From Lingula anatina (Eukaryota > Animalia > Brachiopoda), in assembly GCA_051362555.1 (NCBI GenBank), contig CM120647.1, forward strand, positions 16,468,651 through 16,532,650: 64,000 nt of DNA. Direction: 5' to 3'. The translations under genes and the position numbers were made by a program. Of the stretch, positions 7,759-59,800 are shown piece by piece. Below the pieces are notes generated by a model, which had not been told where the DNA came from, ran no database searches, and was given only the letters and a program-made list of their open reading frames with translations. How positions within the stretch are numbered: position 1 is the first letter of the stretch; every line of letters begins with the position of its first letter.

Positions 7759-8158
7759 CGTGATTCACAAAGCTCATGATCATATCAGCGTCATCAATGG
7801 TCTTCACATTCCCCAAACTGCTGTTCAGATGCCTCTCCTTTAACGCGTCCGTGAACAACTTCTCATCAATCGAACCGTCCTCTTCTTTAAGCGTGTTATA
7901 CAAATCCAACATGAACTTGGGCGCGGACGCTGATTCTGCACTCCCGTGAGTTAACGGTTTCGGCCGATGGTGCAGTCCCAGAAGAGTGAGAATTTCTTGT
8001 TGCATTTCTCTTTGCTCTTTCCGTCGCATTCGATCCACTGCTATCGTTTGGTAAACGCCGTTGTCGGCGTAGAAGCCACTGTCAAAAGCATGTCCACTCA
8101 GTGTAAGGAACGCCAAAAAGGCGATTAAGCTCCCTAGAAGTCTGTGAGACGTTTCCAT
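7759..8158 (-). CDS. BMP5-8: BMP5/6/7/8 (Gbb/60A)-type TGF-beta ligand, first coding exon (signal peptide and start of prodomain); the rest of the gene lies left of the window
   Basis: The ORF starts with a hydrophobic signal peptide. It contains REMQQEILTLLGLHHRPKP, SAPKFMLDLYN and DADMIMSFVNH, which match BMP5/6/7/Gbb prodomain motifs. A phase-1 donor CACG|GTAAGT at 7759/7758 follows MSFVNH. No exon 2 was recognised in 1-7758. Confidence 0.92.
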
Positions 8159-23444: not shown

Positions 23445-23500
23445 AATTCTTTCCGGGAAGAGTGCAGAATTATCCTGACTGTAACATTATGGCATAGAGT

Positions 23501-23571
23501 CAGTGGAGTAGCAAGGGTCTTTAAGGAAGCAACGTGCACCTGCCTCGGCGCCACTTGAGTATACGCCACTG
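23501..23571. mobile_element. Possible 71-bp mini DNA-transposon remnant in the 3' UTR of SLC6 copy 1
   Basis: Termini are CAGTGGAGTA ... TACGCCACTG (hAT-like), and AGAGT is present on both flanks. Confidence 0.4.
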
Positions 23572-24701
23572 AGAGTTCTTACTTACCTGTTAGCGTCTGA
23601 TGTTCCTATATATATTGGAACGCCTTTAAAATCACTCCGGTGTTTAATGTCATAGGCCTTTTTCCCGTAGGCCTATATATGCCATTGCTTTGAACATTTG
23701 TTACGGGGAAAGGAGAATAACGGTTTGGGTTGCCTGCAGTGATCTTGGTGATAATGTCAAAAGATAATGGTGAAATATTTTTTTATGTTTATAGTTAACT
23801 TAAAAGTGCTCGTGCGACATATCATTGATTACTTTGTTTGTGGTCGAGTGTGCATGTGTGCATTGAATAAAGAAAAAGCGACATGATAGTCTTTTTTGAA
23901 ATGCAACAATAAAATTGCATTCGTTTTTTTCATAGTTTCTTGTTGTCAGTCATTGCTTCATAATGTATCCTAACAATTAATCTAAGAACCACAGGTCCAT
24001 AAATTAATCGAGCTTTGTAAATTGAGCATTTTTGTTGACTAGTTGTTGACTATAAATGAATGGGGTTATTTGCAGTTAACAATTATGTTTAATTGTTGCC
24101 TAAACCTAAGATCTAATACACATCCATTTATTAGATCTTAGCCTACACATAGGAATGCAGTTCACAGCGCAGCGCTCTGTCAACACTTATCACATGGGTT
24201 CTTGTGCGAAAACGAGCAGTTTAACCCTTTTCTTTTCCTGGTTTTAGCACCAAATTAAATTTTCTTTAAGAAATTGAAAAGGGCAATTTTCTGCTACTGT
24301 TTGACCCGTCGCAGCACTTGAATGTGATATTTTGTACCATTCCAGATTAACCAAATTGGTCCTAGAGGAAACATGTTTCATGTAGACAGCCATGTCGTGC
24401 TTACATTTCAGAAGGAAATATCGGCATTAGGTACTTTTATCTGATGGATTTGATTTTTTAAACGTTTGAATTGAAAAATATAAGAAGTGGCTTTGTAAGA
24501 CATCAGAGATAAAAACGCGTAGTGAACCTTTGATTAACGACACCCTGCCGAGGGAAAGACCCCCGTCTCTCTAACACGTTCAGCATCTTATCAAGGCAAA
24601 TACCAACAGGTGACAAGTTGATACAGGTAGCTAGGGTGTATTTGTACAGCGTACTTACACAAATCACATGCTGGGTCACATGAGATCACACTAAGATCAA
24701 A

Positions 24702-27700
24702 ATGGAGACTGACGAAGAAAAGCTCCTAGCCAAGGAGGTGAGTGAACTGAATACTTGTCACCAAAGTTGTCAGGTAGTGATCAAAAACCGTGGAGCTATA
24801 TGAGATGATATAGTAGAAGTATGCAACTGTTATAAATATTGTCATCATAAATTGTATCATAAATTGTGTGCTGGCTATTCACTAGGACCAAAGAGGGTCT
24901 ATATAATCATTAACAAACGCAGCGTCATGTATGTTTACTTTATCGAAAGCACTAACAGATCCAAAGTTTGACCTGGGGGTGGGGGTGGGGGGTGGGGTGG
25001 GAGATCGAAGGGGCACAGGGGTTTTTAGGACAATTATTGGGGGAAAGGGGGGCACACGGGAAATATGCACTAAAATGCTTATTCTAAATTTATAATTCAC
25101 AGAAGTAATGCTCAGTTTTTGAGCCCTTATATTTTGTTCTCACAATCTAATAATTTTTTTAAATGGTTGAATTTTAAGATTAAAATCTTTATACAGAGTC
25201 AGATGATTTTTATTAGTTTATTTGTGTGCTTAAAGTGGATAAATGGATTTTGTAGAACTTTAGGTTATGAAATAGGCCTATTACTATAAGTTGTAGGCCC
25301 TAGGCCTGGAGACATTTCAAGAGGGACACGCTTTCGGCAATATTATGGTAAATCCATAAGCTTCGGTAATAGGCCTACGTCTTTCGCCCCTTTCCCCCCT
25401 CGGCTACGACCTACAGTATCTCTACCTCACAATCAACCAAACACGACAAACCAAGCAATTTGCCACTCCCATACATATTACAGTAAAATTGCCCGCGTCT
25501 GCTATTTTTTTACCAAACGCGGAAAAATATTTTATTCTTGCCCCCCTTCCCCCTTCAGCATATTCCTGGATATGCTAGGCAGAATGTAACCCATTTTTTG
25601 TCTGGCTGAAGAATAACATCTGAAGATAGGTACCGTATCTAGGGACTGCTACACTGGTGGGTACCTACGGTGCGCCTGTAGCGTTTTGGAATTTATTTTT
25701 TTCTGTGACCTGAGCCTGACCTCGCTACTGAGAGCCTATCTGACCACCGAGTCATTAATGCAGTTTATCTCTAGGCTGAGGCCCATTAAACAACTTTCCT
25801 GGGTTAAGATCTAGGGTATCAGCTCACACATATAAGTCTATTGCTTATATTTATTTAGCTATTCATCTGTTACCTATTAAACAGTACTTTATTTGTATCC
25901 AGTGTTTTTATCACGTGACGGCTGATAATTCGGTCACATTTAGTTGATGATTTATCTTTCAAAAGTATGCAAAAGTTAGTGTAGCACTGACTAACTCCTT
26001 TTTTTATCTGTAAACCCCTGTATTGTTTGTGATTTATCCTCAAATCGATTATATATTAAAAGTTCTATCAAATCTAGATATGATATAATATGACTCAGTG
26101 GCGATATTGGGTATATATTATCTATGGGGTTAGGCGATATCCATTACAAAATCAAAAACAATATAAAAAGAAATCAATATAGGAAAAAAGCGTTTGCCGA
26201 AGTTATATTAGATTAGATTTTATGACTACTTTCTACACACAAATAATAATAATAATGATAATAATAATAATAATAATAATAATAGTAGTAGTAGTATAAG
26301 TAATATGACTGCATTTTTATTATTGTGAATTTCAGAAAAATACGGTGGTAAAATCGACATATAAATATAAACTCGGGGTGATATTTGCCTGTCTCGGCAC
26401 TGTGGTTGGCACAGGAAATATATGGAGGTTTCCCAGGATTCTCGCCACCAATAGTGACACAAAAGGTAAAACAACTTGCCTCTCTTTCATTTATTCCATT
26501 CATTCGTTCTTTCTTTCTTAATTTCTTTCTCTCTCTGTCTCTCTTTTTCTTTTCTAATTCTTTCTTTCCCTCCATTTCTTCGTCTCTCCGGTCAATTCTT
26601 TTGTCCCTTCCTTCTCTCTTTTCTTCCTTCTCCTCCTTCCCCTCCTTTCCTTATTTCTGTCGTTTCTATCTTTCAACTCTATATTGCTTTGCTTTGCATA
26701 TTCATATAATACCAATATCATCTTGAAAAAAATGAAATAGCTAAGGAAGCATAAACATATAGTCACAGTGCACCAAAGTCGCAAGTTAAGTGAGAAATCA
26801 TTAATCATTTTTATTCTCTAAATACGAATACAAATGATCTGATTTCTATATTTCCAGGTGGTCTGGTATTTCTGATAGTATGGCTTTTCTTCCTCTTCTT
26901 CTGGTCCATTCCTATGTTGCTAACCGAGTATTCCATCGGACGATACACGCGAAAAGCCACCATCCAGGCATTTAGACATTTCCATGGCGACAAGGCCACG
27001 TGGGCTGGCGCGTGGGTTACCTTGGTTTCATTCTTCATTTCGTACGTGAGCATTTTATACAAGGATTAAGGCATGAAACAGTTAAGGCACGGGAAAGCAA
27101 TTTGTTTTGGGGGTTCCAAACGAATTCCAATGTGATTTTGTGTTTTATGAACGGATCTGTTTCAGTGGCATTCACTTAAGTTTTGTTGAAGTCGTCCATT
27201 CCTCACCTCTACTCAGATCACCATTATCATGTTGCTTCTGTAATATGTAATAGCATATGTGGTCTTAATGCATAACAGCGTGTGTTATTTGATTTTGAAG
27301 GTGCATAGTGTATATCTCTCTATACATCTCTTCTTATCTTATACTTATTTTGCAATACGCATTTGATGGTACCTGTTGTATTTCATATACGCTGGTAATA
27401 TAAGGGCGTTATGTGCTTAATTTGCACGTATTGACCTTAGTTTTTGCTTACAGTTGCTATTATTCAGTGGTCGTTGGATGGTGCTTTTATTATTTCGGGT
27501 TTGCTATCGGCAACCCTCTTCCTGAAAACAACGAAGAAGGAAAGAAAATATTTGACGATTTTGTGGTGGTGAGTGTCCTCCTGCAAATTATATCTTCCTT
27601 AGATATGCTGTAATTGTAAGATGAAAAAAGGGTATCAACTTATCTTTATATTTTGCTTTTACAGTTTATCACGTTTGAATTTGCAACATTCCTTGTCATG

Positions 27701-28877
27701 TATTATGCCCTTCTCTCAGATATAGCCTGTTACTACGATATCATTTTTTTCACATTGGATAAAATTTCGGGATGAAAGTTACGATAATGATTTCTTCAAA
27801 ACAACAAAGCTAAAATCGAAGTTATTTACCGTATCCCCGGAGGAAGATGATTTGATAGACCAGTCATTGCCAAAAACTTTTCAACCTTTTGGTTTTCTGT
27901 GGGCTCTTATGAACGATAATACAGAAAGTTGTTTCACCTAAAGTAAAAAGCGAACGTTTAAATACGTCTTATTTTCCACACTGACTTTATAATTATATGA
28001 TCGATAGCATTTTTAATGGATATATTTACCAGTTTTCTTAAAGTATTTTGATATCCCATGTTTTTTGTATTATGAACTCGGAACTTCACTCTCTTGGTTG
28101 CTATTTCAGAATAAATTAAAAAAATTAATGTTTGTGCATTTTTGTATATAATATGTTCATTTTAACCAGTTTTCTGTAAGTTTTTTTATATCCTTAGCTT
28201 TCTATCGAAGTTATTTACCGTATCCCCGGAGGAAGATGATTTGATAGACCAGTCATTGCCAAAAACTTTTCAACCTTTTGGTTTTCTGTGGGCTCTTATG
28301 AACGATAATACAGAAAGTTGTTTCACCTAAAGTAAAAAGCGAACGTTTAAATACGTCTTATTTTCCACACTGACTTTATAATTATATGATCGATAGCATT
28401 TTTAATGGATATATTTACCAGTTTTCTTAAAGTATTTTGATATCCCATGTTTTTTGTATTATGAACTCGGAACTTCACTCTCTTGGTTGCTATTTCAGAA
28501 TAAATTAAAAAAATTAATGTTTGTGCATTTTTGTATATAATATGTTCATTTTAACCAGTTTTCTGTAAGTTTTTTTATATCCTTAGCTTTCTATATTACA
28601 AACGCAATACTTAACCCTCTTGGTTGCTATTTTAGAATAAACCATCATTAATTTTATAAATACTTTCCAGCATAGCAGTTGGCCCATACTGTTTCACGCT
28701 GCGGCCATTTTGTGCGCGGGTGTGGCTACATACAAAGGTGTTAAAACCATAGAGAGGGCCTGTATGGTCATGGTACCCACGCTTCTGGTCATTGTCATAT
28801 TCACATTTATCTGGTCACTCACAAGGAAATGGTCTAATATTGGGCTGACCTATATGTTCACGCCAAGTTGGGGTAAG

Positions 28878-28916
<39 letters not shown>

Positions 28917-31900
28917 GATTTAAAGGCATTTTCTAAAAATATCACAAAATCATTGTATAAACTTGTCTAGTAAAACTTGAAGAACCAAATTTTCATCGCA
29001 AGGTTTAACCGTTTACTTGCTTCTTTAGTGTGCACTCTGTTGAAATATTGACCGAAGTCACGTCATATGTTACACTGTTTGTCCCGAGTGAATATATGAC
29101 CCAAGATCTGGTGCCCGAAGGCGATGGGCCAAAGGCAATAGATCTGTAAAACAAACATTCCAAATTACGTTTTGAATTACCCAATCATAGATGAGAGACA
29201 TATAATGAACGTGACATGAAAATATAATAAACAAAATATATAGAGAACAAAATATTCATTTAATGTATCCCTCTGTTTAGAATCATTCGGAGACCCACGT
29301 CTTTGGGTGGACGCTGTAAGTCAAAATGCGTTTGACACGGGTGCTGGGATGGGTCTTATCATCCCGTATGCGGCCTACATGACCTCCAATCACGGTATCG
29401 TTAGATATGGGACCCTGATACCAGCCACCAATAACATGGTCAGGTCGGTGACTCTCTAAGAGGTTTGACCTCGGATTTTTTAAAAATAATTCAATTATTT
29501 GGGATGCAGATTTAAGAATAACAAATCTTGACAAACGGGGGGAAATTGTAAATGTCACTGCTTTGTAAAAATGTCAAAATATCTAATTATTATTACTATT
29601 TTTTTCATATTATTATTATTATTAAATATATATTTTTTATTTTCATGCTCAATATGGACGTTTTAGATCTCATTTTATTTGCATCTTAACAAACCAATGG
29701 CTTGTAATTTCAGTCTAATCTGCGGGATGACAATCATATCCACTGCCTTCTCGTCCCTAGTTGCACTTCAGCCAACCATCACCCAAGAAGATGTCGTCAA
29801 CATTTTAAAAGATAGTGGACCAGGAAGCACGGGGGTTACTTTTATTTGGTATCTACTTAAAGGCGTATAAGGAGCTTTCGACGTTCATGTAGTAAAATAG
29901 TTTTCCTGGAAATTTCAACTTTTCACTTAAAAACGATATGCCATCTACAGAACCGTTCAAAGAATCTGATACTTCTGCAATATAGCAATTTTTGTTGCCT
30001 CAACTATAATATGATATAAATGGTTGGTTTTAAAATGGAAACTCATTCAAATTATTAAGAATACAAAAAAGCTTAAAACAGCTTTGCATCGTTTTTTACC
30101 GTGATATGTAGATGGGCATTTCCAATCTGGGGAAAAGGAACTTGACGTTTTTCCTATTTTTCATGTAAAACATCAACTTTGTTTGGTGGAGGAACGAAAC
30201 ATCACACCTCGTAAATGAATATAAAAAAGTTTCTTTAAAATTGGCTTTCTTCTTTTCTGACTTTATAAAAAAAACGGTGAAAACCCAAGTCCCACCATAA
30301 TTCCAATCTGATTCTTGATTTCCTAGGGTCCCGGTGTTGTTCCAGGCTGCGGGGGACGAGTTTGGGCGCGTGCTTTGCGTTCTCTTCTTTTTGTGCCTGT
30401 CATTTGCTGGATTGTCGTCTTTAATATCCAACGTTGAACTTCTTGCGCAAACCATGGAGGATTTTGGACGTACGTTAAAGACTGTCTTAGACATGTGTAT
30501 GGCAAAACATTTTATCGTAATATTTTTGAGATCGCCATGAAAACATTTCATTGTTGTTTAGAAAAAAAAAACACGTTTCTAAAACGGTTCATGATTTTTT
30601 TTCCATTAATTACCTCAGGAAGTTGTGTTTATATTGCATCTCACTGATTTTCCAGTAACCACATTATTTAAGTAATATTCTAAAATTTTAATTTAGTTTT
30701 AAGTTATTTAGATGTTGCACTAACCATTTTCTCATCTTACTACCTTCAGTTAAGAGGAAATTCGGCAGTCCCATATCGCTATTGTTGGTATTTCTTATCG
30801 GGCTTCCGTCGGCTTTTAGTCTTGATTTTCTATCAAACCAGGCAAGTGAGAGCTTCTTAAGAATTTCGTCGTTTTATCTCAGTAGGCTTATTAAGTGAGG
30901 TGTGCCCACATGTCAGTTGTGTGACAACAGTTCAAATAGTATTATTTTATGATTTTTGGCACTTAAGGGATAATAATGGACGAATTAGGATAATTTCTGA
31001 CTAACACAGCCAAAAAAAATCAAAGCCTGTTATCTTTTTGCATTTAATTTTTTTTCAATTTATTTCTGTACTGGTACATAGATTGTCATGACCTTGTACA
31101 ATTTGATATACTAATGATGATACAATACAGTTAGTGCATTACCATCTTTATATAATGGACATACGTATCAGTAAAATTACTCATAAAATATTCTATCTAA
31201 GCAATGCGATAAACCTTGGTGTGATTTTAAATTTACCATAAACATACTATAAACATGTTACACAAAAAGAATATGTTTAAACTTAAAACCAAGGTTACAT
31301 AGCTGTTTAAGGCCAGTTTGATGACATGGATAATTACGACTAATGACAATTACATAAGACAGATAAGTAAATAAGTGACACAGATATAAATATTGTGCCA
31401 TGTTCAGTCCCACTGCCGAGTCACTTCTCACAACAGTGGGACCATACACTGACATTTTAAGGGATATGCTAAGAGTTACCAAGCAGAGCAACCACTTCAC
31501 TTCTTTTCTTGAATGATTTGATTATAAAGTTGGAGAGGGACACTAGAGTATCTTTTTTGGCACTGTTAAATACATGGCATAAATGACTGTCTGGTGACCT
31601 GGGATCAGCTTTTAGGATTGAGGTTTTACTTAAAAAAGTGACTCGGTCTGTTTTGTACATTGGGCATTGGAATATAAAATGGTATTCATCTTCAATTACC
31701 CCTTGGGTGCACAGGCGACAGATTCTGTCGCACCTTTCAGTTTTTGGCCTGGTGTGCCGCCCAGTTTCGATGTGGAGTTTATGGTCACTAAGACGTAGTT
31801 TAGCAAGGGTTGACAAGGTGTCATAATTTGTTATTTTATCAACATAAGTTGCCCTTTCACACTTTTGGTTAAGTATACGGAAGAGAGACAATTTACTGTT

Positions 31901-32633
31901 GGCTTGAAGTTTGCTATTGCACATTTGGGTAAAGTGGTCAGTTTTTTAATATTATCTTGATTGCTAAACATTTTATACGCATTTTTCTCATTTAAACACA
32001 TATCATTTTTATCAGTATCATAACTATTAACTTGTTCATTATGGATTACGAATCAAGCTTTTCTCGGCGTCAACATACTCCAGACATAACCCTTTGAACA
32101 CTTTTACTTCAGGATTTCGTCTGGGGGTTCGCGCTGCTCATCAACGGTCTGATGTTACAGGGCCTTGTTATCTTCTACGGCGCCAATACATATCGCCAAA
32201 CTGTGTTCAATAATTTTTCACTAGACGACTGGTATCTGCCGAAGTTGTGGCATTGGATAGTCAAGTAGGTGATATATTTGCAATGCATTTTCTTAGTAGT
32301 ATATCTGTATGTACATGGCTGTACGCGTAGGACTGAAACACAAAACATTTAGACCTTTACATAGCCACAAAAAATGTTATTTCTGTTTTAAATTTTATCC
32401 CGTTTCCTTTTCTCGCTCTTATCAAGGAGTTATATCTGTTATAACTCCTTGATATAAGTTTTTGAGACATCCTTGTACTGAAGATGGAGATTGGCGACTT
32501 TCATTCGTGGCGGTAAAAATTATACATTGAGAACTCGACGGATTTATAGATCGTAACTTTCTGGACGGCTTTGACTAGGTTATATTTGATTATACATGTT
32601 AATTTGTTGAAATCTACCAGATTTTAATATCTT

Positions 32634-32664
<31 letters not shown>

Positions 32665-33512
32665 TTGCTAAAAAAAAGTCCAGACGCGCATGGTATGTCT
32701 TGAAACCAATTTTCTTCAATCGCAGGTTTATAGCGCCTCTGGAGGCCGTGGTGCTTCTGGTATGGTGGGCCATTGACCTCATCGTGTTTGAAGAAGAGAA
32801 GGATCAGCGTTGGTACGAGTTTGGCGCGGAGAGCTTTATGCTCACGATAGTACAGGTAGGCCTACGTATAAGCAGCGGCGACGTCCATTTTTTGGTTCTT
32901 TTCGGATATGGAAAATACATTCATGAAGTGACGTCACTGGTTACGTAGTAAAAACTTGTCATTTACGCTTGTTTACAACTGGAGTGACGCTGAGAGGGGT
33001 CCCAAACATCTAAACTGTTTTCGAATTCGAAAAGGTCCATTTAATAAATTAATTAATTCATCAAACTGTTAATCAGTTGAAGATTTTAAAGCCTTTTAGC
33101 AGGTGTGATTATTTTGTAATCATCTTACACAGGCATGCGCGCGCACACACTCTTAGGCCTATTCACGTTACAAGCATGCATAGGGCCTAATTATAAAGTC
33201 TGCCCTTTTTGTTTATTACTTTTATTTAGTCATTATGGAAGTTTTTATGGGTGTATTTATCTTGTATTTCAGTGGCTGGGATTTATGCTTCTAGTAGTGA
33301 TTGCGAATATCCTGTTGATCAAGTTCCGTCCGCACTGGTTTCAAGTCGCAGAAGTCATACGTCCCAGTCCTAGCACGCCTTACGTCAAATATGGCGCCAA
33401 CGACGACGGTGTCGACATCTTCAGTACATCCGAGAAACTATACGAAAATGAAGACATGGGGAAGAAAACTAAAATGTACGCTGATCACAGTTCTGAAACT
33501 TCTTTTAAGTGA
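24702..33512 (+). CDS. SLC6/NSS sodium-dependent transporter, prokaryote-like, copy 2 (tandem paralogue); 12 exons, ~573 aa
   Basis: Exons: 24702-24737, 26336-26465, 26858-27041, 27454-27568, 28671-28872, 29281-29443, 29714-29848, 30327-30469, 30750-30841 (GC donor), 32113-32264, 32726-32855, 33273-33512. Total 1722 nt in frame. Exons 3-11 have the same lengths as in copy 1. TM1 reads GTVVGTGNIWRFPR. Confidence 0.92.
26243..26296. repeat. (ATA)n(GTA)n trinucleotide repeat just upstream of exon 2 of SLC6 copy 2
   Basis: Directly visible. (ATT)n also occurs at ~28879-28916 and (AAAT)n at ~11264-11297. Confidence 0.92.
27815..28594. repeat. Near-perfect 389-bp direct tandem duplication in intron 4 of SLC6 copy 2
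   Basis: ATCGAAGTTATTTACCGTATCCCCGG begins at both 27815 and 28204. The two copies read as identical by eye. Confidence 0.95.
31060..31940 (-). mobile_element. 5'-truncated non-LTR retrotransposon (LINE): ORF2 C-terminus with CCHC zinc knuckle plus presumed 3' UTR
   Basis: ORF 31469-31924 contains KLRLSDHKLHIETGRH..RCDRICRLC..GVIEDEYHFIFQCPMY..R, the C-terminal motif of invertebrate LINE ORF2 proteins (RTE-X/L2-type). The boundaries are approximate. Confidence 0.82.
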
Positions 33513-38500: not shown

Positions 38501-41500
38501 CAGTCTGTATATACCATTCTGACGAAAAAAAAAAAAAAAAAAGGAATCTGCAAAAAAAAAAAAAAAAAAATCTAAGCGAGCACAAGAAAACATTTAAGTC
38601 TTTTGCTGATAGTATCATGCAAGTTATAAAAGTGAAAACGAAATATATAAAAGAAAATGCACATGATAGCACAAAGGTCTATGTGTTAAAGTTCTGGAAC
38701 CTCAGACAAAACACCTCAACATCCAGATTTTCAGATTAATCCAGAAGAGGTTCATCTCTTGTCATAACACTGGGGGTGGGGGGAGGGGATGTCACCAAAT
38801 CCAAAACTTACGATCACGTCCTTTACCTTGGTATCCCATCATGGGGGGTCTGGGCTGATTGTAGGCCATGACCCCCTGCTGAGGTGGCCCATACCCGCCC
38901 CCTGGTGGCATGTTGTAGTTGTCACGCCCTGGGGGCATCGGCATGCCGCCCTGACGATTGGCGGGATGTTCCGGTAGCTGGGGACGCTTGGTGTCCAGAA
39001 GATAGTTGTTGAAGAATGCAACCTATGAATCAAGACAAGTTGAAGAATGCAGTCAATAATTCAAGCAGAGTTGAACAGTACAAACTTTTAATTAACAAGA
39101 GTTAACAAATACAATCTTTAAATTAAGAAGTAGAAAAATACAGCCTTTTAATAAAAGAGCTGAAGAATAAACCTTCAATTCTGAAAGGTTTTTATTTGCT
39201 TCTTTGAAAAAACTTTTAAAGGTTTTCCCTTTTTCTTCTTTTTCAACAACTAAATCTCTCAAAATACTTCTCTCACGAAAAAATTAAATTTGTTTTTCTT
39301 TTTCCGTCTCTTTTCTAACCTCTTGTTTTACTTCATCAATCTTCTCCCCATGTTTGTTTAGGATATGTTTCCGTACAAATTCGGGGCCTTTAAATTTCTT
39401 CCCACTCAATGGACATAACCACTTGTCCTTTCCAAGCTCCTGAGTGTTGGCGTTCACAAATTTTTCCACCTCTGTGACAATTGTTAAGGTTATTTAGTCT
39501 CTCTTTTTTAACTTTTGGTTATTTAAATGTTTAGTATAAAAGTAGGAAAGAACTTGGAGAGTGCTAGTGTGATGAAACCGAGGGTCCCTGGAGTAGAGGG
39601 TCCACCCTCCACCTTAGGGTAAGCCTCACCTAAATGGGTCAAAATCTAAGACAAGGCTTACTGTCCAAATGAATGGGAACTGGACTCTCTATCATGGGGG
39701 ACTCTTTGTCACATTACACTGGCCTCACCAAGGTATATCAATTCTCATTATTATTTACACAATACATTACGGAACACCCTAATCTAATGGATTTTAAGTT
39801 AAACTTTTATCTGAATTTGAATATTATTATTATTCAAAATCATTTTTAGGTCTGGCTTACGAAGACAAGTCATTTTGCAAGATGTGAAGACAGGGATACA
39901 TATGTTTCTGGGCATTTACAATTTCGTGCAGAAAGTCAAAAAATATTTTGCAAAAAAATTGTACTAATCTGAAGTTTATATTTTAATTGGAGGGTGACAC
40001 TACTGCCAGTTTATCTTTCTAAATATTTTACTGACATCAGTTGAATGGAATTTTTTTTTTTCTTACAGTGTCTGCAAAACAAGTTGAAATCGATGCAGGC
40101 CCATTACATAAAGTGTTAATTACTTCCGACAAAATTTGCACACCTAACCCTTTGACATTCATTAACTTAATATGTTAAAGAAATTATGAAATATATGAAT
40201 TCATTCCGGAAGTTCACAGTCAGGTTAGACCATGGCAGGAAGCTAACGAGACAGTGTTTCCAGACAGTGTAAAACAACCCAGACAAAATTTCCAACATTT
40301 CTTGAAGTCTTTCAAAACTGTATTCACTAGGTGTAACAATCTATGCAATAGTTGTAAGATCTGACTGATCAAAATAAAAACAGACAATTGCAGTGTCAAT
40401 GTCTGACAATTACAATGTATGTAAATAAATAAATATATAAATAAATATTTTTGAGTTCCATTTTAAAAGTGTAAACAAAGCACAACTCCAGGCACCAATG
40501 TTACCAGAACAGTGACACAAACAAACACCACTTTTACTCAAATCAGTGACAAACAACTCTTGGCATTAGGACAATAATCTCCATTCCTCATCCCTCCACC
40601 TTATCCATATCACTGTTTTCCATCAGGACCAAGGGACTGGCAAAATTTTAATGACACTCCTGATTGCAATCAAGGGTTGTCCATCCAGGGTTACCTGTAC
40701 CTAGGTAAACAATAGGTGACACTCTTAATTGCAGTATTAAGCTGGTTACCTGGGCTGGGTGTACCACACCTATCTGTGCAAAACTCAGGTGAGCAATTAT
40801 AGTCACTCTTGATTGCAATCAAGACAATTTACCTAGGCTACCTGGCTACAGGTAAACAATACCTGATCCCCCTCTTAACTGGATGGGTGAACTTTTTACC
40901 TGGAACTTGTTAACAACTAAGTTAGGTGCTAATCAACTGTGTCGCAAACACTCCTGCCAACTTTGTATTAAAATCCAATCAACCAATCACTGGTAACAGT
41001 CCAAAGTCAACTTGACAGGGTGGCCAATCATAGGTGTGGAGACAAAGTGGCAGCTGGCAGGTTGTTGGCATGTTATAAAAGGGGAAGCCCCATGGCATGT
41101 GTGACATTTCTGGTGTCAACCTGCCAGCCTCAAGTGTCAGCCTCTGTGTCAGGAACCAAGAAGTTATTGTTGTGGAATCAAGATACACTGCCATCAAGTA
41201 CAAGGTGCCAGCAGTGCCAGTCTCAACTGCTAAGAAGTGTCAATTGCCAAAAATAGTGTCAACTTCCCCAAATGGAGAGCAAGCTGAAGACACCTGTTTG
41301 TGACAACTCAGAGGTATGTACGATGTTACAGTGTCACATCTCCAGTTCAGGGATGAGACTTCTTGGCTACCAAAATTTCGGAAATCCACTGTTGGAAATA
41401 TCCAATTAGTTGGAAATCCATAGAAAGTTGAAAAAAGTCATCTTTGCCAGTGACAGTTGTATCATATCATCATCTATGTCTTATGGTTTTTCATAGAGCT

Positions 41501-44500
41501 GCCCCTTAAATAAACTATTACATGATCGTTATTTCAACTTGAAGCAAAACAATTTTATGAAAACATCTGATATAAATACTTTTGGTTAATAGTACAATAG
41601 AGAGTCACTGCGATTCAAATTCTGTTGTCTCTTCTAGATCATGTTCATTTTCATACAAAAAATATTTTCTGAAAGACAGTAATAGTAGATGTGGGTTTTT
41701 TCATGCTCATTCAAAAATAATTTTTCAAATCAAAGCAGCCATAGTTGCCCTTAATGAAAAAAAATAGACCCAGTATCCTTATTCATTAACAAGTCACAGC
41801 GGGTCTCACTTTCTGTTACTTCCTTTTCCAAGTAATCAAAACCTATTGTATTCAATTTGCACCTATGACTGTAAACCGCAAAGAAGTTATTTTTGTGCAT
41901 AATGTATTCCCAGCTCATATATTAATGCATCCTTTCACCTCATTCTTCCAGGTTACATCGGACCATGCGCCAGGTCTCTATTCCTGCCGTCAAACAGATT
42001 CCTCCATGACGCCTAGTTCACCAAGCACCGAGCAGTCCGTCGGGCATTTCTCTTATCCGTCACTTACCCGAGAGGCACCAGGAGTAAGCGTAGGCACTGG
42101 GGCAGACTACATGGCTTTATACAACTTGCTGCAACAAGAGTGTTACTCCACCAACATGCCCTCCAGCCTTCTCTGCAGCCTCCCCCGTCCGACACAAGTC
42201 CCCATCAAAACACGAGCGTCGTTTCTAGAGCTGCAGTTCATGCGTCTCCAGTTCAAAGCCAGGGATCAGGTGAGAGACTTACGCAGTGTGTATCTGGATC
42301 AACGACATCAGCTGGATGGGGAACGTCGTCAGGCTCTAGCATCCGTCACCAGTGCCGGCTCCGACCCTGTTAAACAAGCTATCAATCATCATTACGATAC
42401 GATTGAATACCAGCTGGTGGAGCGTGTGCAGAAGAGTCTACAGCTTCTAGAACAGTTCGTCTCTCAGAGGACAGACACGGAACACTCAAATCTTCTGACT
42501 GTCACTTGTGACGCAGACTTTGCACGCAGCTACGAAAGCCCCATTTCACCTGAAGCGCCATCTATACCAGAGACCTACAAAGCACCTGTTCCGAACAATC
42601 GTGAAAATTGCGACAATTTTACAAGTCCCATGACCACATCTCCTCCATCTTGTGGTAGCACAGTCGTGTCCTCCACAGTCACACTGACTCAGCGGAAACC
42701 CAAAGGAAAATGTCGTCCAGCTCCATACGTTCCACGCCCAAGTAACCAAAGCTTTTTCACAAGCCCACTTCGAAAATGGCTGTCTGAGAATGGATACAAC
42801 CTATTTCCTAGTCACAAGGTTATTATGGAACTGTCTGTCACGACGGGCCTGACTGTCACTCAAGTTACACGGTGGTTTGAGAACCAGAGGGCAAGACTTG
42901 CTAAAAGGGCAGCAAACTTATCATGAACTTGTCACAATCTAGAACTGTTCGTATGATCACAACTTTACAGTTGCCAAACAAACCTCATACTTCTCTTGAA
43001 CTGAAACTGTATGTACTATCAGAATACAAGACTGCCTAAGACACTTCATTCTAATCATGAACTAGGACTGTTTGTAGTCAGAATGTGATATTTTACTTGC
43101 CAAATAACAACCTCTGTTAATAGCCATAGAACCCCTTACAAAGTAAATGGTGTACTTCAAAAGAATATTAAATGTAAACTTGTGACTAATTATGTTAATA
43201 TTGTAAATATTTTTGTATCAGTGTGTGCAAAATTGGAACTATCTGTACATTTATCTGCCTAAGCATGTAAAATGAATCTTGTTCAGAGGTTTGATTTCAG
43301 TAATAATACTGTTATACAATGTTTCATTTCAAAATCTCATACTGTGTCAATCTTAATGGTAGTTAGTCTTTTCTCCAGAAAGTTTGTCAAATGTACAACT
43401 GGTTGCATAACATTTCACTTATCATTGTGACTAATTATTTATTCTATGGTATTTACATCTGAGGTCTCATGTCTGCCAAATGTTGCATGCACATCTTGTT
43501 TAATTGTTTCTATGTTACAGTAATAAAACAAAATATCATCAAATGCCTTTTTTCTTGGTGCACATTCTATACCCAATACTTGATGATAAGTATTTGTACT
43601 TGCAGTTATTTAGTAGACTTATAGAGAGTTTTCTCAGTCAAAAAACTATATCCCTACTGGTCACTTTCTGAATTTTCAACACCAGGAGAAGTCACATGTC
43701 CATATGTGACTTAATAGTTTATGGAAAGTGGAATTAACTTGATTCTAGGATGAGACTAACATCTTAAGATAATTCACAAATGAGCTTTTAGATGCCAGTC
43801 AACATTCAATTAGCATTCTTGAACTACAATAACTATGATAAGCTATCTGTGCAGAGCACAAAGAACCCCGTTACATCCTTTCATATCACCTACTTCAGGT
43901 TGAAATAATCCAAAATATTGTTTAAATAATTCTGTGACAACAACATGTTAACATGGATGAAAGTTGTAGAAACTGTAAAGCCTGATGATATAACTTGCAA
44001 TTTCTCATTGGATTTAGACCACTTCAAAAATGAAAAAAAAAAAATCAAAATGAGGGCTGAAAATCATGAAATCAGGCATCATCCTAAAAACTCTCACCCA
44101 TGTTTAGTACAACACAGCAAAACATATACATCAGGGTCTTTCTTTGTTTCCCTGCCTCTTTGAGAGGAGTTCACAATTCCTAATATGACATCTGTCTAAA
44201 ACTTTTCTGACCCAAGTAAAGTAGTAAAGAGTAAAGGATATATATCTGGGTCTTTCTTTCCCAGTTTCCCTGCCTCCTCCTCCTCTAGCTGTCCTTTCAT
44301 CTCCAACAGGTGCTTGATTTTCTGCTCAAAGTTGTTCACCCACTCACTGACTGGAAAAAGCAGTTGACACTCAGTGAATCAAATGCATTGAAAATGATTG
44401 GCAGGTAAATCAACTTAGATAATATTAACAGTGAATAAATCACCTGCAATGAAGATCAGCATACAGTAAATGGACTGCAAATTGATAAGCAGTTGACTGA

Positions 44501-45568
44501 CAAAATAGTTGAAGAATGGCTTGTCTTGCACTCAGTGACATCTATTTTGCTGCTCCTTATTGTAAATGATAACAGTGACCATTCTCCCTTTCACAACGAT
44601 TTCACAATGCAACTTTAGTCCAAAATGCATTAAGCAGAGAGCTGGATGAATAAAAACAAAATTAATAAAAAAAAAGTTTGGATCAAGAGTCTGCTGCATT
44701 GCACTTACTATTTTAGAGACCAAGCACACATTAGATAAAAGAAATTAAATGTGCAAGATTAAATAAGATATCCATCTCTACTTACTGTCAGACTGAGTCA
44801 GCTTATTAATGGGGATAGCTGCGCGTGCATGCATGATCCCACAACGATGTGGCATCTCATCTTCCTGAGGATATTCTGCACCGCTGTAGTAGTCAACAGA
44901 GAACACAATACGCAGGTAGAGTATCATCTTGTCCAGTACCTAAAGTATGCAGTTAAAGGATCAGGAAAGAAAAAAAAAATAGAAAAAAACTATTTTTTTT
45001 AATTTTGTTTACAAAATTTTGTTTGCAATAAGTCACTTTATCATTTCAACAGTATATTTTAGCCTAAGTTACCAAGTAAAATTATCTCAAAATGTTTATG
45101 TTGAAGATCATCTGAATATTTTTGCCATTGCAATTTAACGCTGAATAAACATGCTCAAGCTTCAGATCTAATAAACCTGCAGCAGCAGTCAACTCAGTTT
45201 GCAAGGGGACTTCATCAACTAACTAATGACCTGCTTTGCTGCTTCAGAAGTAAAAAGATTTTTTTCAGCCAAGAAGGCAAAGCTTTCCCCGGCAAACTGA
45301 CCTTCATCACTTTTTCATCTCTCTCTGGAGTGATCTCCCCGTTCTGGCCATCTTTCTTCTCCTCCAGTGCCTCCTCTCCCAGTAACTCCTCCTCCTCGTA
45401 ACTCCCCTCCTCTACCAAGTAGTCTGTTATGTTCTTCAACACTGGGTTTTTGGATACTAACCCAAAACTCTGAAAACCATGAGACATTCTTTATAAAGAG
45501 CTTTATACAGAGTGGACTTCTGTAATAAAAAAAATCCTGAAAATATAAATGCAGCTCTATATGGGAGT

Positions 45569-51574: not shown

Positions 51575-54500
51575 GCTTGTACCTTCCGACTCTAAAGATC
51601 TAAAATACATAAATGTAAATCTACAATTTGAGATATAAGAGATTAAAAAATGCATCACCATAACATTGCTAATAAGTTTTCTTTTACGTGAAAATTAGGG
51701 GATTCCGTAGAGTATACATTATAAACTAGTAGATAAAATTCTACAGACAAAGGGGGTTATTTTTAAACAATCGTTTAACCCAGATTATAAAAAATATAAC
51801 AACGAAATCAATTTGTTAAACCACTGTCGTGAATTTTGGTGATTTATGATAATTCTATTTCATTTCATGTCTCTGTTTTTTCTATTAAACGAGCAAAGGA
51901 TAGTCTCTTTTCTTTTCTAACGCTATCGTTAATGGAAATGAGAGGAAAAATTTCCCGGCAAAAATAACTAGAGTGCATTCACGACGTTTTAAGACAAGCA
52001 TTCTATAAAGACGCATGCTACAAGAACAGATCCATTTTCTTACATACCCCTTAAAATTCTGGGCTTGGAAATTCAAAAACCAAGCTGATCAGGAGAGAAA
52101 AATATGACTGATTTATTTAAAATCACGCCGATCGGCCATGTGCACGCATTCCCACAATTCCTCAAAATGACCTAGTTTCAACATCCGCTTTCTACTTTCT
52201 TAGTGTTGTGTGGAGTTTTTTCAACTGTTATAAATGTTTGAAAATCAAATTAGATGGGCCTTCTTCATGTTAGATCTACATATATAGGTAACACTATTAA
52301 TGTTAATGACACGAAGTGTTTCATCACAATATAATGACACTTAAACCAATAAGACGATAGGTGCAGCCTAGGCTACTGAGTACAGATTCCTCAACTTCTT
52401 GGAAGTTGGAGAAGATTGCAGAAAACTTACTAACCAGAAGAGAAAGACTTCACACATTGGAGAAATTTAATGAATGATGTGGGGACAGTGGTGGGACGTT
52501 CACATGAAATTATCAGTGTGTTAGCCATGAAGGAATTCATATTGGAGAGGAACGTATTACCCCCACCCTGTAACTTTCTGTAACTTTCACTTTTCAAACA
52601 GTTTTTTACATTTTATTGTTCATCTATGTCAAAGCTGTTGAAATAAAATGCTTTTGTAATTACCTGTGGACTTTTTATTAGTTTTAATCACGTTTAATCC
52701 AGCCCATTGAAATACAATGTTAGAATCTTCAATTTACACCCGCAGTCAATGACTTGCCGCATTTTCGTTGGCTAGCTCTAAGGTAATTTTATGTGAACAA
52801 GTAGCTCATAATAATTTCACAGAGGAAGTCCAAGTATACAATGTATCAATCCTATGTTCATCATATTGATGCGTCAAAAGTAGTACTGAGCCATCACACA
52901 AATTACAGGTAGTCAAAAAAGAAAACGAGGAAGAGCATCCTGCAAGAGGGCGACCATATCCTGTTGCTTTATTTAGAAATCAATATCTGTAGTTGAGTGT
53001 AATAGATTGTATTATGGAGAATTTGAGGTTACATGTAGTTTCATTATTCAGTTTTATCACATGTAATCAGAATGTTGTAATACTTACAACATTGGGATTA
53101 TCTTGTTGAAATAAAGCCCATTTGATGACAGTTGTGTTCTTCATCTTATTTTCTTTATGTGTGCACATGGTAAAGTGATGATAATAAGTTTTCAATGGCA
53201 GGTCTCTTACAAGACAATTGCCGTTTTCTAACTCCAGCTTTAGAATTGAGAACACAAATGTACATATTACCCACAAATTGACTATCTCCACTTTACCATG
53301 AGGAAAATTCGGAGCTTGACATTAAGGGTTGGGTTGTTTATTTTGCAACCGCTTTTCCCTCTCAGACAACCAAATCTTGACCAGCAGTTGCTCAACTATG
53401 CAACTGATTTGAATTTAAGGGTTTTGTAACACTTAATTATCATCCAGACACCGGAATGAGGTTTTCCTGCATCTAATTATTCAATAATGCATCTATCTTT
53501 GTGCTGATTTTAAACAATAAAAATCTAGTAAATATAGAATATAGGCGTTTATATTTCTTGTTGCAATGTATACGCATGGGGAACTCAAAGTGTTAATGGT
53601 CAATTTAACACTTTTATATTCTGAGGTGAGATAACAAACGACGTAAATTCATCCCTAAACAAGATTTTATCACAAAAATTGACCACGAGTGTATAGGCTA
53701 CAATCCCATGACGTTTTATTGGTTTAATTGTGCTTTTTTTTTTTTTTTCAGAGTTATGAGACCCTAATAACAGACTTTTATTAAACAAATGCATTATTTT
53801 GTTTTATCAACAATAAAATCTGAACTAAGATTTTTAGAAAAGTTGCTGGCAGGGATTTGGAGTACTAAATGGTGTCATTAATTCAGCGTTGAAACGGGGA
53901 TCGTGGGTGCTCAGGCACAAGAGAAATTTTAGAAACCGACTTTTTCCTTTTTACCCTAAAATCGCAATTAAGACGCCACTGTAAGATGACGTGTGTAAAT
54001 GTTAATCAATTTAGTCACTGAACACTAAAGATTTATCAATTACCCGAAAGAATGTATGTAAGGCAGTAAATGGTCAGAAACAGAAACCTCAGTGCAAAAC
54101 AAAATGAAAATAAAAACATCTGAAGTCTTCTTAGGCCTACTAGGAACGTTCCAAGCAAGCCTATCTATGAAAGCGATCAAACTTGAATTGATTAAGTAGC
54201 CTTTCCCGGTATAACAGCAAGTCATACCACCAGTTAACCGTCTTCAGCAGAAAAACGTTATCTTCTCGGCGGAATTATTTGCCAAATATGTTTTACTCAA
54301 AATTTCCATCGTTTCATTTGCTTAAATGGAAATCAAACCAGTAATTAAACATTTGATTTTTAACATTTTTAATTCCCTCTTAATTAATTAACTAATTAAG
54401 ACCCTAAGGGGACTCGCTTAAACTAAACCACGGCTGTTATAAACCGCCTTTCATCCAGTTGTAGGGCTCTTTAATATCATAGGGAAGCCAAAATTAAACT

Positions 54501-56435
54501 TCTCAAACGCGTTCTCAAACGCGGCTTCTTGTAGCCTACATCATGAACTTCAACGTCCATGATCGAGGACTGGGGTTACGTGGGATGAAATACGAATTAT
54601 CCGTGACAATGTTGAAAGTTTCCATCTAATCTTCCATTGTGAACGAAACTAGGGGCGCCGGTTTAAACAAAATTTAAAAACACGATTAGACGTTGTAGTT
54701 ATCAGGGCGCTCTCGTGGGTCCTAGCAAAATACCTTTTGCATAAAAATACGGTATACTTTAGAAAGTTTACATTAAATGATCGATTTAAAACGAACATAT
54801 TGCTGGTCGTTAGAATAAAGTCTGCGTCGTCAATAATATTTCCTTTCTCTTTAGCTAAAAGTCCATAGATTGGTGCCACAGATCTTGTACTTAAATTGAG
54901 CTGTAGCTAACTCCGTATGTTCTGCATTTCATCAAAATGTGCTATCTTCTCGGTGGGATTATCAAAGAGAACCTTTTTATTTTTTTTTACAAAAGCCTCT
55001 ATTGCTTTTAACAAGCACACATTTTGTCTTTTCATGCCTTCCTTTCCTTTTCTGCGCCCTTGCTTCTCAAGACTGTTCATGTGTTCATACAGTACCCGGG
55101 GCAAGTCCGCGGTCGTCATTTGAACGAGTAAAGACTACTCAATACTAAAACCGCCCAGGTGTGAACAGCTGTGGACCTCGTCGCACTGTATATCGTCAAA
55201 GGCGAAAGCAAACGTTATCTCAGTGCAAAACAAAATAAAAATAAATAAGTAACTGAAGTCATCTAACTAGGAACGTTCCGAGCAGGCCTATCAATGAAAG
55301 CCAACGAACTTGAATTGAATCAGTAGCTTTTCCGGTATAACAGCACGTCATACCACCTGTTAACCGTGTTCAGCAGAAGAATGTTATCTTCTCGGTGGAA
55401 TTATTTGCAAAATATGTTTTATTCAAAATTTCCATCTCTGGTACCGTGGTTCGAGACCCACCAAGTATAGTACCGTATATATTTTTCCAAAATTATGCAA
55501 CGCAAAGTCACGAGTTCGAGTCCCGGATGAGGCACGTCAGTCCATCACGACAACGACCGAGCAACTGAATCGGGACCCGGAAGTCACGAGAACGAATCAG
55601 GGCTCTCGTGGGTCCTAGCAAATTTCCTTTTGTAGTCCATCCTCTATTGCTTTTAACAAGCACACATTTTGTCTTCTCATGCCCCTCCTTTCCTTTCTTG
55701 CGCCCTTGCTTCTCAAGACTGTTCATGTGTTCATACAGTACCCGGGGCAAGTCTGCAGTCGTCATTTGAAAGAGTAAAGACTACTCAATACTAAAACCGC
55801 CCAGGTGTGAACAGCTGTGGACCTCATCGCACTGTATATCGTCAAAGGCGACAGCAAACGTTATCTCAGTGCAAAACAAAATAAAAATAAAAGTGTATCT
55901 GAAGTCATCTAACTAGGAACGTCCCTAGCAGGACTATCAATGAAAGCCAACGAACTTGAATTGAATCAGTAGCTTTTCCGGTATAACAGCACGTCATACC
56001 ACCTGTTAACCGAGTTCAGCAGAAAAATGTTATCTTCTCGGTGGAATTATTTGCAAAATATGTTTTATTCAAAATTTCCATCGCTGTAATTGCTTATATG
56101 GAAATTGCACCAGTTATCAAACATTTGAATGTTTTTCCCCTCTCTTCTTAAGATCTCGCAAAAACTAAAGCACTCCAGTTGTGAACCGCCTTTGATCCTA
56201 TTGTACTTTTTAATATCTTGGGTAAAACCCAAATCAATCTTAACATAAAACAATCTTCTACCTCCGTGTCGGGTTCTGAAACACGCATGGGTTCCTGTAC
56301 ATCATAAATTTTACCGTTCGTGATATATGCGGCACCTGGTTTATCGATTGGGATAGCAGATACACACGTTCATCCAAGCTGGCCCTCTCCGTGGCAAGGT
56401 TGAAAGTTCCCATCCGATCATTACGTATCAACGAA

Positions 56436-56532
56436 GCTGGCGTGGCTCCGTGGTAACGATGCTGTCTCGCATACAGTCAGACACTGGTACCCTGGTTCGA
56501 GACCCACCAAGTATAGTACCGTATACTTTTTT
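56436..56532 (+). ncRNA. Putative ~97-nt Pol III-type cassette (tRNA-like or vault-RNA-like); also at 58931-59027, 60352-60448, 61771-61867 and 63194-63290
   Basis: It has an A-box-like T(G/A)GCTCCGTGG, a B box GGTTCGAGACC, a terminal hairpin AAGTATA-GTACCG-TATACTT and a T6 terminator. The acceptor, D and T stems do not pair, so it is not a canonical tRNA. Confidence 0.45.
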
Positions 56533-56602
56533 CCAAAATTAAATTTTGAATATTCCGTTTGGTTACTATAAGAGGAAACTCGTAAGTACGGAGGGTGGGC
56601 GG

Positions 56603-56804
56603 GTCTGTCACGGCGCAGTCGGTAGCGTGCTTGGATGCAAATGAGATACCAGAAGCGCCATCAACCATGGCAACGCAAAGTCACGAGTTCGAGTCCCGGA
56701 TCAGGCACGTCAGTCCATCACGACAACGACCGAGCAACTGAATCGGGACCCGGAAGTCACGAGAACGAATCAGGGCTCTCGTGGGTCCTAGCAAATTACC
56801 TTTT
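56603..56804 (+). ncRNA. Putative ~200-nt tRNA-headed structured cassette (SINE-like or Pol III ncRNA); copies start at ~59098, 60519, 61938 and 63360
   Basis: It has a D-arm/A box GGCGCAGTCGGTAGCGT and a B box GAGTTCGAGTCC. Downstream hairpins are GTCCCGGATCAG/CTGAATCGGGAC and GGACC..CACGAGA/TCTCGTG-GGTCC. It ends in TTTT, and TATAAG lies ~35 nt upstream. Confidence 0.45.
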
Positions 56805-59800
56805 GCATAAAAATACGGTATACTTTAGAAAGTTTACATTAAATGATCCATTTAAAACGAACATATTGCAGGTCGTTAGAATAAAGTCTGCGTCGTCAAT
56901 AATATTTCCTTTCTCTTCAGTTAAAAGTCCATAGATTGGTGACACAGATCTTGTACTTAAATTGAGCTGTAGCTAACTCCGTATGTTCTGCATTTCATCA
57001 AAATGTGCTATCTTCTCGGTGGGATTATCAAAGAGAACATTTTTATTTTTTTTACAAAAGCCTCTATTGCTTTTAACAAGCACACATTTTGTCTTTTCAT
57101 GCCTTCCTTTCCTTTTCTGCGCCCTTGCTTCTCAAGACTGTTCATGTGTTCATACAGTACCCGGGGCAAGTCCGCGGTCGTCATTTGAACGAGTAAAGAC
57201 TACTCAATACTAAAACCGCCCAGGTGTGAACAGCTGTGGACCTCGTCGCACTGTATATCGTCAAAGGCGAAAGCAAACGTTATCTCAGTGCAAAACAAAT
57301 TAAAAATAAATAAGTAACTGAAGTCATCTAACTAGGAACGTTCCGAGCAGGCCTATCAATGAAAGCCAACGAACTTGAATTGAATCAGTAGCTTTTCCGG
57401 TATAACAGCACGTCATACCACCTGTTAACCGTGTTCAGCAGAAGAATGTTATCTTCTCGGTGGAATTATTTGCAAAATATGTTTTATTCAAAATTTCCAT
57501 CTCTGGTACCGTGGTTCGAGACCCACCAAGTACAGTACCGTATATATTTTTCCAAAATTATGCAACGCAAAGTCACGAGTTCGAGTCCTGGATGAGGCAC
57601 GTCAGTCCATCACGACAACGACCGAGCAACTGAATCGGGACCCGGAAGTCACGAGAACGAATCAGGGCTCTCGTGGGTCCTAGCAAATTTCCTTTTGTAG
57701 TCCATCCTCTATTGCTTTTAACAAGCACACATTCTGTCTTCTCATGCCCCTCCTTTCCTTTCTTGCGCCCTTGCTTCTCAAGACTGTTCATGTGTTCATA
57801 CAGTACCCGGGGCAAGTCCGCAGTCGTCATTTGAAAGAGTAAAGACTACTCAATACTAAAACCGCCCAGGTGTGAACAGCTGTGGACCTCATCGCACTGT
57901 ATATCGTCAAAGGCGACAGCAAACGTTATCTCAGTGCAAAACAAAATAAAAATAAAAGTGTATCTTGTATGTCGTTAGAATAAAGTCTGCGTCGTCAATA
58001 ATATTTCCTTTCTCTTCAGTTAAAAGTCCATAGATTGGTGACACAGATCTTGTACTTAAATTGAGCTGTAGCTAACTCCGTATGTTCTGCATTTCATCAA
58101 AATGTGCTATCTTCTCGGTGGGATTATCAGAGAGAACATTTTTTTTTTTTTTTTTACATTTTGTCTTTTCTTGCCTACCTTTCCTTTTCTGCGCCCTTGC
58201 TTCTCAAGACGGTTCATGTGTTCATACAGTACCCGGGGCAAGTCCGCGGTCGTCATTTGAACGAGTAAAGACTACTCAATACTAAAACCGCCCAGGTGTG
58301 AACAGCTGTAAACCTCGTCGCACTGTATATCGTCAAAGGCGAAAGCAAACGTTATCTCAGTGCAAAACAAAATAAAAAATAAAAAAGTATCTGAAGTCAT
58401 CTAACTAGGAACGTTCCGAGCAGGCCTATCAATGAAAGCCAACGAACTTGAATTGAATCAGTAGCTTTTCCGGTATAACAGCACGTCATACCACCTGTTA
58501 ACCGTGTTCAGCAGAAAAATGATATCTCCTCGGTGGAATTGTTTGCAAAATATGTTTTATTTTAAATTTCCATCGCTGCAATTGCTTATATGGAAATTGC
58601 ACCAGTTATTAAACATTTGAATGTTTTTTCCCCTCTCTTCTTAAGATCTCGCAAAAATTAAAACACGTCTGTTGTGAACCGCCTTTGATCCCATTGTATT
58701 CTTTAATATCTTGGGTAAAGCCAAAATCAATTTGAGTATGAAACAAACTCCTAGCTCCGTGTCGGGTTCTGAAACACGCATGGGTTCCTGTACATCATGA
58801 ATTTTACCGTTCATGATAAATGCGGCACCTGGTTTATCGAATGAGATAGCAGATACACACATGTTCATCCAAGCTGGCCCTCTCCGTGGCAAGGTTGAAA
58901 GTTCCCATCCGATCATTACGTATCAACGAAGCTGGCGTGGCTCCGTGGTAACGATGCTGTCTCGCATACAGTCAGACACTGGTACCCTGGTTCGAGACCC
59001 ACCAAGTATAGTACCGTATACTTTTTTCCAAAATTAAATTTTGAAAATTCCGTTTGGTTACTATAAGAGGAAACTCGTAAGTACGGAGGGTGGGCGGGTC
59101 TGTCACGGCGCAGTCGGTAGCGTGCTTGGATGCAAATGAGATACCAGAAGCGCCATCAACCATGGCAACGCAAAGTCACGAGTTCGAGTCCCGGATCAGG
59201 CACGTCAGTCCATCACGACAACGACCGAGCAACTGAATCGGGACCCGGAAGTCACGAGAACGAATCAGGGCTCTCGTGGGTCCTAGCAAATTACCTTTTG
59301 CATAAAAATACGGTATACTTTAGAAAGTTTACATTAAATGATCCATTTAAAACGAACATATTGCAGGTCGTTAGAATAAAGTCTGCGTCGTCAATAATAT
59401 TTCCTTTCTCTTCAGTTAAAAGTCCATAGATTGGTGACACAGATCTTGTACTTAAATTGAGCTGTAGCTAACTCCGTATGTTCTGCATTTCATCAAAATG
59501 TGCTATCTTCTCGGTGGGATTATCAGAGAGAACATTTTTTTTTTTACAAAGTCCTCTATTGCTTTTAACAAGCACACATTTTGTCTTTTCATGCCCTCCT
59601 TTCCTTTTCTGCGCCCTTGCTTCTCAAGACGGTTCATGTGTTCATACAGTACCCGGGGCAAGTCCGCGGTCGTCATTTGAACGAGTAAAGACTACTCAAT
59701 ACTAAAACCGCCCAGGTGTGAACAGCTGTAAACCTCGTCGCACTGTATATCGTCAAAGGCGAAAGCAAACGTTATCTCAGTGCAAAACAAAATAAAAAAT

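Follow-up and report, generated by a model that had tools for sequence, protein, structure and literature searches.

A PADRE-bearing TALE homeobox gene of Lingula anatina with a changed recognition helix

Introduction

In embryos with spiral cleavage, the fates of the quartets are set by SPILE genes, which encode TALE homeodomain proteins (PMC8524836). PADRE was defined, and early expression of the novel oyster TALE genes described, by Paps 2015 (PMC5322547); the domain occurs in the A/C, B and D clades, and some mussel members evolve rapidly (Phuangphong 2021, PMC8524836). Here, we analyze LOC106162408 of Lingula anatina, a brachiopod that cleaves radially (Luo 2015, PMC4595640). The gene lies in a stretch of 64,000 nucleotides (contig CM120647.1 of assembly GCA_051362555.1, positions 16,468,651 to 16,532,650, forward strand), called the window below and numbered from its first letter. 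We put the probability at about 0.5 that it encodes a SPILE TALE protein with a conserved PADRE and a changed recognition helix, which still binds DNA but at a different word from other SPILE proteins.

The SPILE A/C-clade genes (oyster TALE9-13; clades VI/VII/XV/XVII; Paps 2015, Barton-Owen 2018, Phuangphong 2021) carry the same short PADRE upstream of a single TALE homeodomain, and have the R5-P6 arm and the non-basic position 31 in common with LOC106162408. They differ from it in having K46, K47, A50 and K52, against T46, R47, E50, Q52 and A54 in LOC106162408, which is further set apart by its L-F-P loop, L20 for Y20 and radially cleaving host. A Lingula paralogue (LOC106175991/LOC106174190; P0003, P0152) is 48% identical in PADRE (57/118) and likewise has L20, L24 and Q52, but it carries two similarly divergent homeodomains instead of one, both with R50 and the second without N51. 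The sequences of its two records are almost the same, so they may be allelic. The TGIF1 homeodomain (PDB 6fqp, 6fqq), the top PDB sequence match, resembles LOC106162408 in its non-proline position 24 and Y-N loop; TGIF1 differs in I50, R54 and the lack of PADRE, and its score is no better than that of Meis. Finally, the Engrailed variant STRER (Chu 2012, PMC3460184) has T46, R47, E50 and N51 as LOC106162408 does, but it is an engineered, artificial protein on a non-TALE scaffold and has R54 in place of A54.

Results and Discussion

RNA reads of four runs, taken from nine same-species raw runs and coded without stage, were mapped over 38700-45450. They bear out, on the plus strand, the gene that a sequence-only reading of the window had proposed at 41272..42926. 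Coding exon 1 (41272..41313, 14 codons) opens with the ATG at 41272, matches the N-terminus of XP_013395155 and has read cover in run X1. Coding exon 2 (41952..42926, 324 codons and the stop codon, which ends at 42926) is covered 15-45 fold in X1, with a mate orientation opposite to that of the host gene described below. The 638-nt, phase 0 intron between them (41314..41951) has its donor GT at 41314 and its acceptor AG at 41950-41951, and 15 poly(A) RNA reads of X1, with 10 start places, cross exactly this joint. The predicted protein has 338 amino acids (aa); the one close match in the databases is LOC106162408 of Lingula anatina (XP_013395155), from which it differs at 6/338 positions. Coding depth was 0-1.3 in X4, X7 and X9, compared with about 2-11 fold for host exons there; since the reads of X7 and X9 are mostly 90-95% alike, some signal may have been lost at the threshold. 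Expression of LOC106162408 is restricted, being strong in one of the four mapped runs.

LOC106162408 is thereby confirmed as a real, spliced and transcribed gene that looks functional. The 13 coding variants listed for X1 comprise nine synonymous and four nonsynonymous changes over 241 synonymous (S) and 773 nonsynonymous (N) sites, a per-site ratio of nonsynonymous to synonymous polymorphism (pN/pS) of 0.14 (p 7e-4). A decaying duplicate or annotation artefact without current function would accord with little or no signal in three of the four runs, and with finding no orthologue outside Lingula among 162 matches (best 150 listed), but such decay is very improbable given the 338-codon frame open in two assemblies, the spliced poly(A) reads, an indel allele of 3 nt that stays in frame and the excess of synonymous variants. 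On the spliced reads, the open frame and the synonymous excess we reject a pseudogene.

The helical region that had been described as PADRE-like is a true PADRE. Together with its upstream helices it occupies aa 65-186 (42102..42467, plus strand). On a profile of 59 proteins from outside Lingula, one of them oyster TALE13 (K1RAG1, which also appears in the PADRE alignment published in PMC6118893), it reaches 95 bits, whereas proteins that lack the domain score at most 5 bits. E-clade-like rows reach at most 3 bits, in agreement with PMC8524836. AlphaFold2 predicts five helices in this region, the last two long, with a model confidence (pLDDT) of 90-98 over aa 101-190. Carrying both a true PADRE and a TALE homeodomain, LOC106162408 therefore files with the SPILE family.

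The homeodomain (63 residues, 42723..42911, plus strand) shares exon 2 with PADRE, and no intron lies between or inside the two. It matches Pfam Homeobox_KN over positions 1-40 of 40 at 33.7 bits (cut-off 24) and Homeodomain at 34.3 bits (cut-off 22.9), and the AlphaFold2 model, confident here, aligns to the Meis2 homeodomain with Z 9.8 and a root mean square deviation of 1.6 over 55 residues; the profile search and structure prediction that the sequence-only reading had suggested as checks thus both returned a homeodomain. TALE spacing, LFP loop and WFEN, also claimed there, are exact in an ungapped alignment to Meis and TGIF. The numbering gives W19 L20, three extra residues of TALE type between helices 1 and 2 (G23a Y23b N23c), L24 F25 P26 (42801-42809) and a recognition helix of T46 R47 W48 F49 E50 N51 Q52 R53 A54 R55, with W48 at 42873 and E50 at 42879. 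The W48, F49, N51 and R53 core and the three-helix fold are present; the PYP loop and the small residue (I/A/G) at position 50 that are typical of TALE proteins are absent, L-F-P and E50 standing in their place. Both traits are typical of the class rather than obligatory: TGIF has A-Y-P at the loop and an Owenia PADRE protein L-Y-P. The N-terminal arm had been called degenerate or displaced. Degenerate it is where helix 1 begins, and in having V at position 3 and N instead of L/F at position 8, but Arg5 (42735) stands in register within R5-P6-S7.

For comparison, 160 ungapped homeodomains from 123 non-Lingula PADRE proteins were assembled, with near-duplicates kept and a single gapped domain left out. 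None of the 160 has E50, A54 or T46; F25 occurs in one, and L24 and R47 in two each. LOC106162408 nevertheless keeps the core residues of the family (W48 160/160, R53 159/160, N51 157/160, R55 152/160), and R is the commonest residue at position 5 (45/160). Position 50 is A in 127, S in 16 and G in 10 of the 160; Glu had been read correctly there, but these SPILE residues, and not the classical families used as a yardstick, are the right comparison. The charge of helix 3 is +4 (SPILE range 3-6) and that of the domain +6, also within the SPILE range. Identity to other SPILE proteins is low in the homeodomain (24% vs. 38%) and ordinary in PADRE (median 30% vs. 29% between SPILE proteins), and the Lingula stem branch measures 2.88 in the homeodomain tree (a quick mixture-model search) against 0.51 in the PADRE tree. 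By these comparisons the divergence of LOC106162408 is shown to be concentrated in its homeodomain, with an ordinary PADRE. Its description as a SPILE-type, PADRE-bearing, fast-evolving and expressed gene agrees with the PADRE score, the homeodomain identities and the X1 reads. WFEN in helix 3 was also found in five other retrieved protein clusters, none of them PADRE-bearing. In one unnamed protein family (P0004, P0168, P0169), around seven TALE-like homeodomain matches stand in tandem, and one has WFEN.

A representative protein search from LOC106162408 returned 162 matches, of which the best 150 were listed. After LOC106162408 itself, the best match is the PADRE-bearing, two-homeodomain paralogue of Lingula; many others match aa 65-186. 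A word-based search from one alignment (A1) yielded 2 proteins. In a tree of PADRE plus homeodomain (41 rows, 7 of the 48 picked having been dropped for PADRE scores below 25 bits), the two Lingula genes group together (99) and fall outside the B+D clade (97); the long Owenia branches beside them are not reliable neighbours. Owenia fusiformis has fast-evolving PADRE genes of its own (P0041, P0113, P0114, P0046), some with consecutive accessions, and P0114 combines an L-Y-P loop with the loss of N51. The quick mixture-model tree of the homeodomain was poorly optimised, both constrained trees scoring better, and placement was therefore taken from approximately unbiased (AU) tests under LG+G4 (42 rows x 63 columns, long-branch rows left out, one TGIF-like protein). 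These gave a p-AU of 0.45 for a SPILE grouping and 0.22 for a TGIF-like one. Both groupings, including the canonical one that the sequence-only reading had named as a refutation, are therefore compatible with the homeodomain.

As to origin rather than function, the gene might be a chimera of a SPILE PADRE and a homeodomain from a canonical TALE gene such as TGIF or Mkx. Helix 1 and the loop do resemble TGIF, PDB scores for TGIF1 (30.2 bits) and Meis (30.1) stand above those of PADRE-bearing proteins (maximum 30.0, mostly much lower), and in the free LG+G4 tree an Mkx-like row is the neighbour of the two Lingula genes, the TGIF-like grouping being compatible with the AU test. However, the SPILE grouping lies 1.6 log units above the TGIF-like one, the mixture-model tree, for all its poor optimisation, draws LOC106162408 on the SPILE side, positions 50 and 54 fit no canonical family in the alignment compared, and both domains occupy one unbroken exon. 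We regard a chimeric origin as unlikely. Membership of TGIF, Meis, Pknox or Mkx is contradicted by WFEN, A54 and PADRE, where those families have WFIN or WFAN, R54 and no PADRE; Tgif and Pknox are present in Lingula as genes of their own (PMC6118893).

Barton-Owen 2018 (PMC6118893) counts four TALE genes of Lingula as non-canonical (I, III, XIII, XVIII) and warns that TALE surveys miss genes; motifs of LOC106162408 and its paralogue have 0 occurrences in the supplement of that paper. No description of LOC106162408 was found in a literature search whose coverage did not extend to Morino 2017, which may list the gene. From its sequence, LOC106162408 is a SPILE variant unlisted in Barton-Owen 2018, with homeodomain-specific divergence. 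SPILE duplicates that evolve fast and are confined to one lineage have been described before, so that on such grounds alone it would be an odd member of a known family. A Lingula subfamily that keeps PADRE and changes the DNA-reading helix would allow a test of whether SPILE targets were rewired upon loss of spiral cleavage, and LOC106162408 lets the R47/E50 recognition rule, which came from selection, be tested in a natural protein.

Helix 3 probably still docks on DNA, because N51, R53, R55 and R5 are kept, and would do so on a TGA core, with R47 and E50 shifting the 3' bases towards C/G. A54 would probably lower the affinity of the homeodomain. The L24-F25 loop may remodel the peptide pocket, which Pbx uses for its Hox partners. 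TGIF1, with A-Y-P in its loop and a solved DNA complex, shows that binding survives the loss of P24 by itself. The PADRE helices may mediate pairing with another TALE protein, and LOC106162408 would have its role in the early embryo, like the other SPILE genes. As to specificity, the R47/E50/R54 set is the main selected solution for TAACGG, and STRER (T46 R47 E50 R54) binds that word, which makes E50 compatible with specific binding; K3 and R55 together specify G at base 2 (Chu 2012, PMC3460184).

Several observations weigh against retained binding with altered specificity. The E50 binders cited have R54 and an Engrailed scaffold, where LOC106162408 has A54, and V3 rather than K3 (the supplements of Chu 2012 may hold A54 variants); A54 removes the third contact of the R47/E50/R54 set, and Y25 and K46 are lost as well. 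Q50E abolishes DLX1 binding (bioRxiv 2020.04.09.012385), and the K50E form of PITX2 is both dominant negative and defective in binding (PMC2093940). Each of the three Lingula homeodomains has a recognition helix of its own, one without N51, which fits relaxed selection, and of the six positions that differ from the NCBI allele, three lie in the homeodomain. In addition, pN/pS rests on the 13 variants listed, with 160 further variant rows spanning the whole stretch, and the PADRE identity of the query is inflated because the set was partly retrieved by likeness to it. The homeodomain might then no longer read DNA and be kept as a folded scaffold, the protein serving as a PADRE cofactor or a dominant-negative TALE partner. 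The fate of DLX1 and PITX2 upon E50 changes, a PADRE conserved while the homeodomain drifts, and a paralogue whose second homeodomain lacks N51 while the first has N55 would all suit this. Nevertheless, R5, N51, R53, R55 and a basic helix 3 are kept, R47 (2/160 in SPILE) adjoins E50 as in the selected binder, and the literature consulted on PADRE does not show dimerisation, Paps 2015 (PMC5322547) suggesting only that the domain is functional. Loss of DNA reading is a real contender, but we hold it rather doubtful. The sequence-only reading had offered altered or lost specificity, possibly in a dominant-negative cofactor: the altered specificity is plausible, while loss of binding and dominant-negative action are neither shown nor favoured with these four residues kept and helix 3 at +4.

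A more far-reaching version of altered binding, which we consider improbable, is that of a Lingula-specific SPILE subfamily, in a lineage that has lost spiral cleavage, in which a natural animal TALE homeodomain reads a CG-type word through R47/E50 and PADRE is a derived PBC-type dimerisation domain. If PADRE were so derived, SPILE proteins would be Pbx-like partners or competitors of Meis/Pknox. The likeness of PADRE to PBC consists of a matching predicted helix count and a presumed sequence resemblance to PBC-B. The PBC domain of Pbx/Exd, for which no solved structure is reported, is, like PADRE, N-terminal to a TALE homeodomain, with five predicted helices of which the last two are long (bioRxiv 2026.02.16.706105); Pbx, of the PBC class, has G50 where LOC106162408 has E50. 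The long helices of PADRE, and the position of PBC and MEINOX ahead of the homeodomain in other TALE classes (PMC6219170; bioRxiv 2026.02.16.706105), are why PADRE may be a pairing surface. A fold search with PADRE gave generic hairpins and bundles only (Z up to 9.9, below helical noise level), a PDB sequence search nothing under E 0.16, and an ESM Atlas query generic helical matches with no usable feature match. PBC, Meis and KNOX were not among the 25 families listed in Pfam scans of 61 and 66 SPILE proteins, single-sequence scans that miss remote homology, and none of the 69 matches of a search aimed at Pbx proteins had a PBC domain listed.

LOC106162408 is nested antisense in an intron of Ars2/SRRT, a housekeeping gene on the minus strand identified by ARS2 Pfam matches on the flanking exons. 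This host intron (39474..44241, minus strand, 4768 nt, AT-AC ends) has its joint in all four RNA runs. It starts ATATCCTTT, has a CCTTAAC branch site about 10 nt before its end, and ends AC, which fits the U12-type donor and branch-site consensus. A U12 branch distance of 11-13 nt is given in PMC6717393. An entire antisense gene nested in a minor-class AT-AC intron looks unusual. Short repeat elements at 39660-39720 and 44026-44989 draw reads that originate elsewhere; loose ends and poly(A) tails accompany them.

Upstream of the coding region, a TATAAA box (41074..41079) and CCAAT motifs (40975, 40983, 41024) on the plus strand may serve as promoter elements; plus-strand RNA depth climbs from the 40960-41185 bin onward. 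A motif cluster at 40620..41070, partly a degenerate 148-nt duplication, holds two TGATTGCAATCA palindromes, nine YAGGTA (0.7 expected) and seven TGATTG (0.3 expected), motifs picked after the fact; we take the cluster to recall Zelda/ZEB and DUX-type early-embryo sites. At 41070-41320, in the 5' untranslated region and first codons, short degenerate repeats hold seven copies of TGACA, the TALE core site, against an expectation of 1.65 (p 0.002); upstream of the TATA box there are 3 copies where 1.6 are expected, which is no enrichment. Auto- or cross-regulation through these words is possible. Downstream, AATAAA at 43522..43527 (plus strand) is a candidate polyadenylation signal, and the 3' end is only a candidate because read depth fades beyond 43220.

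Elsewhere in the window, two exon sets that resemble each other (22755-33509, plus strand) belong to a membrane protein, presumably an SLC6-like transporter, and had no Pfam match on the single frames tested. The first exon of a TGF-beta family gene, which we take to be BMP5-8-like, lies at 7604-8191 on the minus strand (propeptide match). A tandem array of about 1.42-kb units fills 54100-64000, with partial offsets of 646 and 426 nt and last copies 98-100% identical.

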